A stretch of 64,000 bases of DNA from Eledone cirrhosa (Eukaryota): contig OZ024741.1 in NCBI GenBank assembly GCA_964016885.1, positions 86,924,001 through 86,988,000 of the forward strand, read 5' to 3'. A program made the position numbers and the translations under genes. Each line of letters starts with the position of its first letter. Position 1 is the first letter of the stretch. This document shows, piece after piece, positions 44,903 to 61,149 of this stretch. The notes beneath the pieces are model-generated. The model saw nothing but the letters and a program-made list of their open reading frames with translations. It searched no databases and was not told where the DNA came from.

Positions 44903-45740
44903 TGTTGTTCCTCAAAGCCAGTGTTGAATAAACAGGTGACGGGCGGTCACCGGCACTGCACTGATTCAAATTGGGCCGTTTCTTTACAAACGAATCCAAC
45001 ATTATTATTAATGTTCGATATAACCCATACGTACATATGTATATGTATATGTGTGTGCATGTATTTATATATATATGTATATATATATATATTATTAATG
45101 TTCGATATAACCCATACGTACATATATATATATATATATATATATATATATATATATATATATATATATATATATATATATATGTGTGTGTGTGTGTGCA
45201 TACTTACATTTTTGTATCAGCTGTGCTAGGCCGAGAAATAAAATTCTAATTTTATTTTTAATATTCGGCAAGGCCAGCCGTAACTCGCTCGGTATGAAAA
45301 TGAGGCTACTCAGCTGATGTCTACTTACGAAAATACTACATATTTTCAACCGTTCAACAGACTGGCAGAGGTATACAATCCTGATGAAGGGTAATGACCC
45401 AGAAACATGTTGATTGTTCCTCAAAGCCAGTGTTGAACAAACAGGTGATGATCGGTCACCGGCACGGCACAGATCAAATCGGGCCGTTTGTTTACAAATG
45501 AATCGAATATTATTATTAATGTTCGATATAACCCATACGTTCATATGTATATGTATATATGTGTGTGTATGTGTAAATATATATATATATATATATATGT
45601 GTGTGTGTGTGTGTGTGTGTGTGTGTGTGTGTGTGTGTGTGTGTGTGTGTGTGTGTGTGTGTGTGTGTGTGTGTGTACGTGTGCATACTTGCATTTATGT
45701 ATCAGCTGTGTTAGGACGAGAAATAAAATTCTAATGTTCT
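44903..45740 (+). mobile_element. Retrozyme-like tandem repeat, ~509 bp period, 1.6 units
   Basis: ttgttcctcaaagccagtgttgaa at 44905 and 45414; HHR at the unit junction. Confidence 0.8.
45375..45417 (+). ncRNA. Minimal type I hammerhead ribozyme
   Basis: acaatc CTGATGA agggt aatg accca GAAA catg TT gattgt; perfect 6-bp stem I; palindromic ACATGT. Confidence 0.85.
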
Positions 45741-46032
45741 ATATATATATATATATATATATATACACACACACACGCACGCACACACACATGCACGCAC
45801 ACACACACACAGACATACATACCACACACACACACACACACACACACACACACACACACACACACAATTTATATTCCTGCTATGTAAAATATCTGATGTA
45901 TTTACATTGAGCTATTTTTCTTACTGGTAATAAGGTAGTAAGGAATTACTAACCTTTCCTGTCTATAATTATATATATATATATATATATATATATATAT
46001 ATATATATATATATATATATATATATATATAT

Positions 46033-47295
46033 ATAAAAACAAATAACGAAACGAAATTAAATTTCGTTTCGTTTGTAACTCACTTTTGTATGACTGACGC
46101 TTAAACAATTAAGTTAAAAATGTACATCCACATATGCACACTGAAATACTAGTGTGTATATGAATACACACACGTATACATATGCAGGTGTACCAAGTCT
46201 TTCACTGGTCGCTTTACAGTGAGAGGCCCAGCTATTCTGTATGTAAACACACAGACAAACCGGTTTTTAGAGTCATACTGGTTTTCGGGGGGAACACCTT
46301 CCCTCCATTCTACAGAAAGCCAGACAAGGAACATTGGACTAGTTTCGTTGTTGTCACAACCCATCAGCAATACCTACCCATCTACCGGCCTTTCTGGAGA
46401 ATTGTAAAAGCACATATCGTTATATGCTTTTTCTATGAAAATTAGTAGTGCGCAGACTAACCTGCATAGAGTGTGAGTACGCACCGGTTCAGCGGAGACG
46501 ATAAAAACAAATAACGAAACGAAATTAAATTTCGTTTCGTTTGTAACTCACTTTTGTAAGACTGACGCTTAAACAATTAAGTTAAAAATGTACATCCACA
46601 TATGCACACTGAAATACTAGTGTGTATATGAATACAGGTGTTCCCCCCGAAAACCAGTATGACTCTAAAAACCGGTTTGTCTGTGTGTTTACATACAGAA
46701 TAGCTGGGCCGCTCACTGTAAAGCGACCAGTGAAAGACTTGGTACACCTGCATATGTATACGTGTGTGTATTCATATACACACTAGTATTTCAGTGTGCA
46801 TATGTGGATGTACATTTTTAACTTAATTGTTTAAGCGTCAGTCATACAAAAGTGAGTTACAAACGAAACGAAATTTAATTTCGTTTCGTTATTTGTTTTT
46901 ATCGTCTCCGCTGAACCGGTGCGTACTCACACTCTATGCAGGTTAGTCTGCCCACTACTAATTTTCATAGAAAAAGCATATAACGATATGTGCTTTTACA
47001 ATTCTCCAGAAAGGCCGGTAGATGGGTAGGTATTGCTGATGGGTTGTGACAACAACGAAACTAGTCCAATGTTCCTTGTCTGGCTTTCTGGAGAATGGAG
47101 GCAAGGTGTTCCCCCCGAAAACCAGCATGACTCTAAAAACCGGTTTGTCTGTGTGTTTACATACAGAATAGCTGGGCCGCTCACTGTAAAGCGACCAGTG
47201 AAAGACTTGGTACACCTGCATATGTATACGTGTGTGTATTCATATACACACTAGTATTTCAGTGTGCATATGTGGATGTACATTTTTAACTTAAT
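46033..47295. mobile_element. Retrozyme-like repeat, ~468 bp unit, tandem copies facing inverted tandem copies
   Basis: Unit restarts at 46033 and 46501; orientation flips at ~46635; (TA)n on both sides. Confidence 0.85.
47031..47071 (+). ncRNA. Minimal hammerhead, A9>G variant (mirror copy 46332-46372, minus strand)
   Basis: tattg CTGATGG gttg tgacaa caac GAAA ctag TC caatg. Confidence 0.7.
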
Positions 47296-47359
47296 ATATA
47301 TATATATATATATATATATATATATATATATATATATATATATATATATATATATATAT

Positions 47360-47800
47360 ATTGTTATACTTTGGGAGGGTCATGTTGCCAATAAGAAACA
47401 CACGCACCAGTTGCTTTCACTTCAATTTATTATAATAAATTTATAAATTTAGGAATTTATAAATTTCTGGTTGGTTGATTCCACAACCAGATGGTTGTTT
47501 ATATATTGTCAAAGTTCTTTCGTCACACATTCTGTGACCTCTTCAGTGACTGGGGGCTCTTTCACAGAATGTGTGACGTAAGAACTTTGACAATATATAA
47601 ACAACCATCTGGTTGTGGAACCAACCAACCAACCAGAAATTTATAAATTCCTAAATTTATAAATTTATTATAATAAATTGAAGTGAAAGCAACTGGTGCG
47701 TGTGTTTCTTATTGGCAACATGACCCTCCCAAAGTATAACAATATCGGTTTCAACACACGTTTTCAGATAAAGAATCTTGCTAAACAAATTCAGAAACAA
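47360..47800. mobile_element. Palindromic solo pLTR of the 17515-18985 PLE family
   Basis: 47360-47537 is inverted at 47563-47743 and followed by the same tail as 18925-18985; another copy at 14810-15090. Confidence 0.85.
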
Positions 47801-48417
47801 TATATATATATATATATATATATATATACTATTTTATATCAGTGATATATATACTATTTTATAACTGTGATTGAAACATTTTTACGTAATGTTTCAAATT
47901 TGAAATGAATTTTCATTGTCACTTTGAAAGACATTTTTATTGCTTTTGAATCGTTGTGCATCTATCAGTGAGCAGAGGAAGGATAGTTGGGATAAGGCAT
48001 ACTGTGTTTTTAATTTACTTGAATTAGGGAATATGTTTATTTCATGTGAAGATGGAGCAGTTAATCCATTATGTTGCAGTGTTATTGATATTACTTAAAA
48101 CAATCACAAAGGAATTTCAAGTAGATTAAGCACTCCCTCTTAACAGGAAATAAACATGTCCACTAATTCAATTAAATTTGAAAATACAAGAACAACTACA
48201 AACACACAGTTTCCTCTTCCGCCACCACCACTCACTCCCTCTGCAAACTAGCAACTACACAATGAATTAAAAACAATAAAACTTCCTTTCAAAATGACAT
48301 TTATAGAATGTGAAACATTATTTTTAAAACTTCTGAATTTTATCTCCATCACAGTTGTGATCAGCTGCTAGGTGTAAACTTATGTTGCAAATAACTGCTA
48401 CTTACTTATAAGATATA

Positions 48418-58921: not shown

Positions 58922-58962
58922 CCGAGAACAACTGTTTCACCTTATGCGGATCTTCAGCTCGG
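58922..58962 (-). ncRNA. Minimal hammerhead within a ~135 bp hairpin (58895-59030)
   Basis: Minus: ccgag CTGAAGA tcc gcataa ggt GAAA cagttg TT ctcgg; stem II is short. Confidence 0.65.
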
Positions 58963-59594
58963 ATTCAGCATAAGATCCGCATAAGGTGAATCAATTGTTT
59001 TCGGTATGGTGAACTAACTGTTGTGTTACTACTTCTACCAAACTCATCCCATGGACTGAGTGATCTACCACTACGGATATTACCTTCTAGTGTTCTACCC
59101 TCCTCTCTCTCCCCTCCTCTCTCTCTCTCTCTCTCTCTCTCTCTCTCTCTCTCTCTCTCTCTATATATATATATATATATATATATATATATATATATAT
59201 ATATATATATATATATATAAAATTGAGGCTTGTTTGCATAATTGCAAACGAATCGAATGTTATTATTAATATTCGAAAAACTCAGATTACATTTATTATA
59301 TATATATATGTATATATATATATATATAAGCGGAAAAAATGAAACGAAATTTCATTTCTCACTCTTAGTACGGCTGTTACTTAAATATAAAAGTATGTAT
59401 ACATACATACATATATGTATACAGATGTACAGTAGTATGTATATATATACATACATGCACACATATATATATGTACGTATGGATTCACCGAACATTTATT
59501 ATAATGCTCGGTGTGTTTGTAAACAAACATCCCGAATTAAGCCGTACAGTGTCTAGCAACCATCGTTGCACATTTGTTCAACACTGACAAAGGA

Positions 59595-59637
59595 ACGCTG
59601 TACTAGTTTCAAGCTTATTAGCTATCGTCAGCAACGT
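59595..59637 (-). ncRNA. Minimal type I hammerhead ribozyme
   Basis: Minus: acgttg CTGACGA tagct aata agctt GAAA ctag TA cagcgt. Confidence 0.85.
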
Positions 59638-60053
59638 ATACCTTCCTGCCAGATGGTTAAACGTCTGAAAGTATATACTTTCCTTATGCATATTAACGGC
59701 TGAGCAGCCTAATTTGCATATCGAGTGAGTTAATCGGCCGGGGTACCGAAAACGATAAACGGAAAAAATGAAACGAAATTTCATTTCTCACTCTTAGTAC
59801 GGCTGTTACTTAAATATAAGTATGTATACGTACATACATATATGTATACAGACGTACAGTAGTATATATATATATATATATATATATATATATATATATA
59901 TATATACATACATGCACACACATATATATATGTACGTATGGATTCACCGAACATTTATTATAATGCTCGGTGTGTTTGTAAACAAACATCCCGAATTAAG
60001 CCGTACAGTGTCTAGCAACCATCGTTGCTCATTTGTTCAACACTGACAAAGGA

Positions 60054-60096
60054 ACGCTGTACTAGTTTCAAGCTGATTAGCTATCGTCAGCAACGT
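60054..60096 (-). ncRNA. Minimal type I hammerhead ribozyme
   Basis: Same as 59595-59637 with one change confined to loop II. Confidence 0.85.
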
Positions 60097-61149
60097 ATAC
60101 CTTCCTGCCAGATGGTTGAACGTATATGCTTACCTTATGCATATTAACGGCTGAGTAGCCCAATTTGCATATCGAGTGGGTTAATCGGCCGGGTGCACCG
60201 AAAACGATAAACGGAAAAAATGAAACGAAATTTCATTTCCCACTCTTAGTACGGCTGTTACTTAAATATAAGTATGTATACGTACATACATATATATATA
60301 TATGCACACACATATATATATGTACGTATGGATTCACCGAACATTTATTATAATTAAGCCGTACAGTGTCTAGCAACCATCGTTGCTCATTTGTTCAACA
60401 CTGACAAAGGAACGCTGTACTAGTTTCGTACAGTGTCTAGCAACCATCGTTGGTCATTTGTTCAACATTGACAACGATGGTTGCTAGACACTGTACGACT
60501 TAATTCGGGATGATTGTTTACAAACACACCGAGCATTATGATAAATGTTCGGTGAATCCATACGTACATATATATATATGTGTGCATGTATGTATAGCTG
60601 TCGTTTCGACAGCTAGATCCGAACTCTCTCCCTATATAATATATTAATTAAACGGTAATTAGTCTCTAATACTAAAATAATTCAATGAGAGAAATCTTCC
60701 AGAGAAGCAATATCATATATTAAAATTAAGTGAGGAAAAAACTCTAATTGCCTCGCTTATATATAGATCTCTCTACCATGGTTTCATATGGGGAAGAATT
60801 ATTATTGGAACCACCAATATTTGAAGAATCCGCCATACTCTTCATGGCAGTTTCATTCTTCAAAATCTAAGAGAAATTGAACAAGATATAATACATACTA
60901 TTTCCTTTGTCGAAGCAGCATGGTGAAATGATAACATACGTAGAGTTTCGTTATCAAAATCTCCTATGATATTAGGACACCTTGACATGCTTATAATGTC
61001 GCTAGAAATAGCAGCCAATAGACTGTCTGGTTCAACTCGACAAATTAGGGAGCAGTTCAATATCAATTAAAGGTTAATTAGTCTCTAATAGTTAAACATC
61101 TCAATGAGAGAAATCTCACAGAGAAGCGATATTATATATTAAAATATGA

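Follow-up and report, generated by a model that had tools for sequence, protein, structure and literature searches.

A non-coding hammerhead repeat family, likely PLE-mobilised, with A-to-G clusters that may record RNA editing

Four arrays in a 64-kb window (the whole stretch of DNA that was analysed) represent insertions of a non-coding, high-copy hammerhead family that is likely a PLE-mobilised non-LTR retrozyme, and in which some A-to-G clusters of family B are likely to be ADAR edits that became fixed in DNA. That PLEs reverse-transcribe retrozyme circles by a rolling-circle route has so far been a hypothesis, and the link to a helper has consisted of co-occurrence and likeness to pLTRs. 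The family adds two handles at the DNA level. One is the tail and twin-arm signature of PLEs on a retrozyme, and the other is private A-to-G clusters that point to a single unit-length molecule as the source of every repeat in both arms of an insertion. As DNA-level sequence evidence, these features appear unusually direct with respect to the hypothesised cycle, and they suggest that a mobile RNA carries the products of RNA editing back into the genome. The A-to-G imprint of the window's B array is new. Among titles and abstract openings in the open literature, we found no report of a PLE signature or an A-to-G imprint on a retrozyme. Neither feature had been mentioned in an earlier, sequence-only reading of the window.

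Units and hammerheads of the four arrays

The arrays (A to D) are four insertions of three related non-coding unit types of 430-510 bp, with repeat periods of 509 (A), 468 (B), 448 (C) and 429-452 (D), and each array is 1.3-2.9 units long. The units are colinear, with identities of 64% (A-B), 72% (A-C), 70% (A-D), 64% (B-C), 65% (B-D) and 91% (C-D). All six values exceed the best of 30 shuffles, that of A-B by a modest margin only. The sequence-only reading had described four diverged tandem arrays of one colinear unit of ~450-510 bp. The colinearity stands, as does the divergence of A, B and C/D (64-72% identical). However, C and D are one family, and B, C and D consist of head-to-head inverted arms, not plain tandem repeats. 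That the arrays encode no protein was borne out: a coding frame is absent, the longest ATG frames in B, C and D have 74-87 aa, and a 199-aa frame in A coincides with that array's long dinucleotide runs.

Array A (44903..45740, plus strand) is a single arm of 1.65 units. Its start lies ~2-3 nt past the cleavage site, and it runs to slightly beyond the terminal hairpin, where it meets (TA)n. The left arm of array B (46033..46636, minus strand, 604 nt) has its 3′ end at unit position 267, the long end with the tail, and the right arm (46636..47295, plus strand, 660 nt) has its 3′ end at unit position 192, the short end; both ends adjoin (TA)n. A small hairpin (short start site) and a tail of ~70 nt with a long GAAATT/AATTTC hairpin (long start site) lie in B at 46820..46902 (plus strand), and the long tail hairpin is found in all three families. 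Array C has a main arm (50760..51487, minus strand, the arm of period 448) and a short inverted arm (51482..51545, plus strand) that terminates at a long end adjoining (TA)n. Array D has a main arm (59326..60427, minus strand, with the periods of 429-452) and a partly rearranged inverted arm (60427..60596, plus strand).

Array A holds a single hammerhead, of type I, at 45375..45417 (plus strand, core 45381-45411), with predicted cleavage after 45411, an A.A at 10.1/11.1 and a palindromic stem III. The hammerhead of the right arm of B occupies 47030..47073 (plus strand, core 47036-47066), and its core A9 is a G at 47042. That of the left arm, at 46330..46373 (minus strand, core 46367-46337), has the same A-to-G changes. 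On the minus strand, C has cores at 50977-50947 (intact) and 51423-51393 (G12>A), and D has cores at 59631-59601 and 60090-60060.

The earlier claim of a covarying hammerhead in each array was borne out. In an alignment of eight copies, pairing is kept in 95% of cells, versus 30-49% in slid controls, and both sides have changed in 10 of 21 pairs. The stems thus differ in sequence and still pair, as claimed, with two corrections: stem II has five positions, of which 10.1/11.1 form an A.A or U.U mismatch in arrays A, C and D, and the TATTG/CAATG stem I of B reflects A-to-G changes. Because of its A-to-G changes, the window's B hammerhead is atypical in this stem and in its core (CUGAUGG). The unedited core and a 7-bp stem I occur in 76 of 83 hammerheads from 30 partly overlapping B stretches. 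The catalytic core is retained between families of 64-72% identity, and every family type has U, C or A at position 17, both of which fit selection for the predicted cleavage.

An unedited B copy matched the Rfam model Hammerhead_HH9 (E 6.6e-9) at 38.6 bits, under the gathering score of 52. A search with the A copy matched no hammerhead model. A scan of the whole window gave no hammerhead among the 150 of 174 matches listed, and the matches are microsatellite miRNA noise. Two copies of the A or the unedited B hammerhead are predicted to co-fold with an intermolecular stem III. Predicted circular folds of the units have z-scores of -6.9 to -9.1, and the antisense strand is predicted to fold nearly as well (-5.7 to -8.8).

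Dispersal and insertion architecture

A signature of the family has 35,477 exact matches in the genome, and a 19-mer of B has 8,305; the controls have 0 in each case. Arrays reach 32 short units, have fixed ends and are scattered over many contigs, and identical units are found on different contigs. Related species also carry the family. It is therefore dispersed, mobile and high-copy, and does not consist of local satellites. Contigs from four runs contain the family, with the junction between units and an end at position 267 that is flanked by TA, which has no bearing on expression.

The units could instead belong to a PLE with an ORF, as its pLTRs or its truncated 3′ ends, or be satellites that were amplified where they lie. 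PLE protein matches do lie near 26 of 138 loci (a small share of all loci, sampled from many thousands), at one locus (L091) a B arm is joined to the 3′ end of a PLE, and long arrays show some DNA-level shuffling. However, the unit was the pLTR or 3′ repeat of an ORF at none of the 138 loci, which is the arrangement that the earlier reading had itself named as fatal to it. An ORF with RT and a GIY-YIG endonuclease, as in an autonomous PLE, was not found in the units. Together with the fixed ends of arrays on many contigs and the sharing of identical units between contigs, this makes such an origin very improbable. By the pLTR test and the conserved core, a retrozyme-like family, as originally proposed, is the best reading, and we regard it as very likely. 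In sequence terms, the family has the properties expected of non-LTR retrozymes: short tandem units that encode no protein and carry a type I hammerhead, a high copy number and a predicted self-paired circle.

Insertions of the family have (TA)n flanks, head-to-head arms and two fixed 3′ ends, all of which are shared with a young intact PLE of the same genome. The 3′ ends of B arms fall at unit positions 190-200 or 263-268 in 103 of 107 cases. One long and one short end occur together at 40 of 64 loci, and two long or two short ends at none. The type of array D recurs at two ends ~56 nt apart. A tail plus two start sites is the signature of PLEs (PMC11167929, PMC8557442), and the inverted B arms are also 5′-truncated and lie in an AT-rich target. 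The family is very likely to be PLE-mobilised.

None of 116 arms starts exactly at the cleavage site. Starts within 428-440 number 4 of 116 (p 0.40), and those within 425-468 number 19 of 116 (p 0.012), which is unexplained. The idea that 5′ ends gather at the cut site was rejected: the initial excess, which arose from a 40-nt length filter, vanished on retest. Junctions that span the cleavage site are seamless, with no insertions or deletions in the words listed. At the ligation site (430-433) there are 7 departures in 576 cells, where the mean rate is 0.3%. We considered RT errors at this site, for which these departures are a weak hint only.

Two PLEs lie in the window. One, at 51562..54935 (plus strand), is a 5′-truncated member of a separate family, with a broken RT end and GIY-YIG at 52275-53595; it has an inverted arm and, at one of its ends, a 35-nt tail. 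The other, at 33839..38954 (plus strand), is a broken copy of the young family, whose intact genomic copies have the same insertion architecture as the units; it is a candidate helper only. An intact copy encodes a 775-aa protein with RT and GIY-YIG and has a tail of ~55 nt. The named relatives of the PLE protein are bivalve. Nearby PLE fragments use the same (TA)n target as the retrozyme-like units and are at most candidates for the helper. The unit ends have no clear homology to the ends of the window's PLEs or of the young intact family; one match reached p 0.027 among many tests. In antisense, B 384-398 matches the long end of the young PLE over 15 nt (E 0.006), which is likely due to chance. 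Junctions with PLE pieces at five loci (L041, L066, L091, L097 and L114) were rejected as a link to a helper, since they involve different PLE families and resemble nesting in shared TA tracts. With the two start sites, the tail hairpin and the young intact PLE now defined, the system is open to tests with purified PLE protein.

A-to-G clusters in family B

The window's B array has 11 sense-strand A-to-G changes that are present in every copy and in both arms. In the right arm (plus strand) they lie at 46750, 46796, 46806, 46941, 46942, 47024, 47029, 47030, 47042, 47048 and 47071, and are repeated at 47218, 47264 and 47274. Relative to the nearest of 65 other loci, the array differs by these 11 changes and two single-copy changes. 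The adjacent pair at unit positions 394/395 has two matches in the genome, both within this array, and one of the changes falls on the catalytic A9.

The excess extends beyond this locus. At 64 B loci, A-to-G accounts for 15 of 24 rare locus-wide changes and for 10 of 151 single-copy changes (p 1e-9), and with the window's locus excluded it still accounts for 6 of 15 locus-wide changes (p 9e-4). Two AA>GG patterns occur in 20 units at ~3 loci and in 66 units at ~15 loci. Their mirrored TT>CC controls have 0 and 0 occurrences genome-wide, a control that is lenient because T-to-C-type changes break pairs. Apart from the two selected sites, A-to-G makes up 18 of 38 multi-copy changes at these ~15 loci versus 2 of 25 single-copy changes (p 9e-4). 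Hot spots of A-to-G change lie at unit positions 233-243, 301-307 and 389-397. The 5′ neighbour is U or A at 17 of 19 edited sites versus 71 of 115 other As (p 0.013). In the predicted fold, 15 of 19 edited As are paired versus 71 of 115 others, which is not significant (p 0.11). A triple A-to-G at locus L151 was rejected as private, as it occurs in 69 units at seven loci, with no new locus-wide change among them.

Clustered changes on one strand with a 5′ U/A preference, here in family B only, have the pattern that an ADAR imprint would leave in sequence, and we are quite confident that they are ADAR edits fixed in DNA. A-to-G hypermutation in retroviral proviruses is a parallel. It is also conceivable that the element is real and the changes reflect G.U-tolerant selection, polymerase bias or DNA conversion between repeats. 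A-to-G preserves a pair that T-to-C breaks, some T-to-C changes are locus-wide too (3 of 24, and 4 of 38 among the multi-copy changes), and neither D (3 of 15 locus-wide changes) nor A (1 of 2) has an A-to-G excess among 27 and 28 loci, respectively, ranked by likeness to the window copy. However, C-to-T is equally pair-preserving and a commoner mutation, yet contributes only 1 of 24 and 3 of 38. Moreover, the changed A9 is catalytic, the 5′ neighbour bias fits ADAR (PMC5625713), and later mutations in the window's array stay single-copy, so the array was not homogenised. We therefore consider these non-ADAR causes unlikely.

The clusters resemble ADAR hyper-editing of repeat-derived dsRNA, with clustered sense-strand A-to-G, depletion of G on the 5′ side and structured repeats (Porath et al. 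2017, PMC5625713). By contrast, they are read here in genomic DNA, are common to all repeats of an insertion and are inherited by daughter insertions.

Proposed cycle and known systems

In the cycle that we propose, an array would be transcribed, and hammerheads, probably acting as dimers, would cut the transcript to unit length. A host ligase would then close the circle, and ADAR would sometimes edit the structured RNA or a fold-back precursor. At a (TA)n tract, PLE protein would nick each strand and start synthesis from two internal sites, one on either side of the tail hairpin. The two primers would then be extended around a single circle, a monomer or at times a dimer, and the resulting cDNAs would join head to head. 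The presence of the A-to-G changes in every copy and both arms argues for one unit-length template that was read repeatedly, and the DNA-level evidence includes read-through of the cleavage site. A closed circle is probably the usual template. Slightly better than even, in our estimate, is the chance that the edits are barcodes recording this whole cycle in DNA, with both arms PLE-primed at two fixed sites and rolling-circle copied from one ribozyme-made circle (monomer or dimer), and with germline editing as a heritable mutator that founds sub-lineages and at times disables the ribozyme.

Not all arrays derive from one monomer. Some alternate two unit types, which suggests a dimer template. 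Loci L260 and L286 mix or alternate types, with at least four in L260, and L165 changes subfamily within ~60 nt past the cleavage site. A 32-unit array has variants common to non-adjacent units, a sign of DNA-level shuffling. The mixed types at L260 and the switch at L165 would also suit a PLE passenger that is not autonomous and has linear RNA as its template, either uncleaved multimers or cleaved monomers with repeated end-to-end jumps, with no circle and a secondary role for the hammerhead. In addition, PLE reverse transcription begins internally on unprocessed RNA with the hammerhead dispensable in vitro, and an anole PLE inserted without requiring its hammerhead (PMC11167929); a 4.2-kb autonomous PLE makes tandem units too. 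However, independent editing of the units of a linear multimer would not produce genome-private edits that recur identically from pass to pass within an arm and in the other arm. Few arrays are mosaic, junctions are seamless, the cut site shows no accumulation of 5′ ends and the hammerhead core is conserved across families. Copying from linear RNA is thus doubtful, if a little less so than a non-ADAR cause of the edits, and a circular template is preferred.

As described in two papers (PMC7229834; 10.64898/2026.07.22.740005), metazoan non-LTR retrozymes resemble the family: their tandem units are non-coding and low in GC, with a type I hammerhead whose helix III is weak and palindromic, they have thousands of dispersed copies and a predicted circle with strong self-pairing, and they co-occur with PLEs. 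The U.U mismatch at the base of helix II also occurs in the axolotl hammerhead HHR_Amex2. Their sizes are 150-450 bp (Cervera & de la Pena 2020, PMC7229834), so that the units of 430-510 bp are at or above the range, and 51-972 bp (Li, Clavereau & Pollet 2026, 10.64898/2026.07.22.740005), which includes them. Neither paper describes, in the accessible text, arms placed head to head, a pair of fixed 3′ ends, targeting of (TA)n or A-to-G imprints. According to a 2020 review, retrozyme repeats carry no motif pointing to a helper (PMC7761336). In Xenopus, only one of nine predicted retrozyme dimers cleaved in vitro, according to the 2026 paper (10.64898/2026.07.22.740005), which weighs against the proposed cycle.

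Endonuclease-positive PLEs share with the family arms that are tandem and inverted with 5′ truncation, a tail confined to one end, a pair of internal start sites, targets of AT-rich or (TA)n sequence and a hammerhead inside the repeat (Craig et al. 2021, PMC8557442; Frangieh et al. 2024, PMC11167929). By contrast, the family has no ORF, its hammerhead is canonical where theirs is minimal, its tail is 56-70 nt where theirs is 30-40 nt, and its arrays consist of up to 32 short units. The U.U mismatch at the base of helix II also occurs in the axolotl hammerhead HHR_Amex2.

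Hammerhead units in the window and across the genome

The four arrays of non-coding hammerhead units claimed by the sequence-only reading are present in the window: A (44903-45740), B (46033-47295), C (50760-51545) and D (59330-60597). A core scan placed hammerhead cores on the plus strand in A (45381-45411) and in the right arm of B (47036-47066), where an arm is one of two head-to-head halves. Minus-strand cores occur in the left arm of B (46367-46337), in C (50977-50947, and a second with G12>A at 51423-51393) and in D (59631-59601, and a second at 60090-60060). The repeat periods are 509 (A), 468 (B), 448 (C) and 429-452 nt (D). 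The arrays are colinear, as that reading held, and units aligned along their length show 64-72% identity between families. However, C and D are 91% identical and thus form one family, so that the arrays represent three families.

The proposed covariation of the hammerhead stems was borne out. In eight copies, 95% of cells pair and 10 of 21 pairs are altered on both sides, as against 30-49% paired in slid-structure controls; these eight rows are related, and the shuffle count therefore gives no probability. The motif is a canonical type I hammerhead. A B copy that is unedited (lacking sense-strand A>G changes, likely from ADAR) matched the Rfam model HH9 with an E-value of 6.6e-9, under the gathering score, and an A copy matched none of the Rfam hammerhead models. 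Helix I has 6-7 bp with an internal loop. Helix II has five positions and is capped by an AAYR tetraloop in the unedited copies; its basal position is mismatched in A, C and D. Helix III is a palindrome of 2 bp, and such short palindromic helices are described as favouring cleavage as a dimer (PMC4209133). Co-folding of two copies predicted a dimer for the A motif and the unedited B motif; the double fold was absent from the minimum-energy structure for the window's edited B motif and the D motif.

The hammerhead units are a dispersed family. The 3.0-Gb genome contains 8,305 exact matches to a B 19-mer and 35,477 to the family's hammerhead signature (control 0 in each case). We sampled 40 B loci ranked by similarity to the window copy, 24 consecutive B loci along contig 1, 27 loci of D and 28 of A (from sets of 30, duplicates removed) and 13 further loci. 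A Penelope-like element (PLE) protein match lies near 26 of 138 loci. For all 26 the table of hits was inspected; where a hit might adjoin the unit or lie upstream of it in the same orientation, the sequence or annotation of the locus was read too. In these 138 loci, a sample and no census, the unit never serves as an ORF's 3' repeat, contrary to a reading of the units as terminal repeats of an ORF-bearing PLE. Identity as an autonomous PLE was rejected.

The family comprising B, A and C-D works like a metazoan non-LTR retrozyme and is classed as one by each feature that could be tested (class as described in PMC7229834; 10.64898/2026.07.22.740005; PMC7761336), with cleavage and circles predicted. 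The family is real and a new member of this class.

Near-identical pieces of unit B occur in two other organisms (word shares 0.42 and 0.36), so the family reaches beyond this species or label. A B subfamily at L140-L141 (G000:C1:5737000-5755000) forms a 32-unit array whose helix II carries two mutually compensating changes (409/420).

Insertion ends and the PLE signature

The 3' ends of B arms fall at unit positions 190-200 or 263-268 in 103 of 107 cases, nearly always adjoining (TA)n. These short and long ends bound a tail with a hairpin. Among 64 B loci, 40 have a long and a short end, 14 just a long end, 6 just a short one and 4 another arrangement; none has two ends of the same kind. (Pieces below 40 nt or 88% are left out, and some single-arm loci hold a tiny second arm.) D has two recurrent ends ~56 nt apart. 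Arms join head to head at a varying point.

A young PLE in the same genome, with an intact 775-aa RT and GIY-YIG frame, has a tail of ~55 nt and the same layout as B; both ends are visible at three of seven loci examined, each long plus short. A one-end tail and inverted arms are reported as PLE marks (PMC8557442), and a purified PLE protein is reported to nick and extend both strands, with two internal starts bounding the tail (PMC11167929). The distance from the B start sites to the predicted cut, at 431/432, is ~165 and ~235 nt. None of 116 arms stops at this cut, which argues against a single reading of a cleaved linear monomer as the source of the insertions.

The young PLE (L228-L239, e.g. 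G000:C4:322579500-322599300) is very young: many loci carry one and the same 775-aa frame. Its tandem units measure 4,211 bp, and another stretch resembling a reading frame precedes the RT frame on the upstream side. Window 47019-47033, the stem I flank in unedited B, has a 15-nt exact antisense match (E 0.006) to L228 unit 2905-2919; this match, at the PLE's long start site, is probably due to chance. At L091 (5314-5620), a B arm breaks off at unit position 393 and runs straight on into the tail-bearing 3' end of a PLE, which may reflect a template switch or a deletion. Several further PLE remnants, short and with inverted repeats, have hammerhead-like cores of their own; mostly flanked on both sides by (TA)n, they occur at window 47358-47800, 58760-59191, 63544-63957, 7369-7787 and 13724-14132. 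A degenerate tandem repeat of 72-75 bp (32836-33233) lies inside a His/Asn/Tyr-rich open frame, apparently a PLE 5' region. The 9.9-kb tandem duplication at 12219-22097 and 22298-32173 (99.97% identity, N gap between copies) is possibly an assembly artefact.

A>G changes in B and the implied template

Two single-copy changes and, on the strand of the hammerhead, 11 A>G changes set the window's B apart from the nearest of 65 other loci. Each A>G is seen in every covering copy (up to four, two passes per arm). Nine are rare or private; the other two, at 171 and 436, also occur as alleles at other places. For the 394/395 pair, the two arms in the window are the only matches in the genome. Over 64 loci (omitting columns 1-25 and piece edges), A>G accounts for 15 of 24 rare all-copy changes versus 10 of 151 single-copy changes (p 1e-9), and for 6 of 15 rare all-copy changes without the window locus (p 9e-4).

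Of two targeted A>G patterns, one occurs in 20 units spread over 3 loci and the other in 66 units spread over ~15 loci; their mirrored controls have no match genome-wide. The ~15 loci were picked on two sites, which were omitted from the counts, and columns 69-78 and 450-468 were skipped. Here A>G makes up 18 of 38 multi-copy novel changes versus 2 of 25 single-copy changes (p 9e-4), or by distinct site 11 of 29 (alignment noise accounts for ~6 of these 29) versus 2 of 25 (p 0.012). One five-locus sub-lineage has three A>G in common, with four A>G and one G>C as further single-locus marks; two of these four are in one copy only, at L284.

The 5' neighbour is U or A at 17 of 19 A>G sites (p 0.013), and 15 of 19 are predicted paired (p 0.11). 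Sites of ADAR editing are reported to cluster in repeats and to be depleted of G on their upstream side (PMC5625713), and RNA editing has been raised as one possible source of circle heterogeneity (PMC7229834). Selection for wobble pairs could also produce A>G, but should favour C>T as well, yet C>T makes up 1 of the 24 and 3 of the 38 changes. Against an ADAR imprint, there is no A>G excess in A (28 loci) or D (27 loci), T>C changes are also present, and a triple A>G at L151 marks a seven-locus lineage without any new locus-wide change.

Since private edits recur in successive passes and both arms, one unit-length molecule appears to have templated the whole insertion. Given the seamless junctions, the simplest template would be a ligated circle. 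Where edited positions are unpaired in the predicted circle, their source may be the fold-back duplex that would arise in a transcript spanning both arms. For known retrozymes, both rolling-circle copying and a helper role of PLEs are described as proposals (PMC7229834; 10.64898/2026.07.22.740005; PMC7761336), and the mechanistic record of this family makes the open retrozyme question directly testable.

Arrays of 20-26 units have almost no internal variation, which fits a single event. In the + arms of L260 and L286, two differently edited unit types alternate, as would be expected from a dimer circle; the other arm of L260 is mosaic. The 32-unit array has signs of later DNA shuffling. At L165 (G000:C744:11500-19500), the 5'-most 1.26 units are from another B subfamily, and the switch falls at most ~60 nt past the cleavage site.
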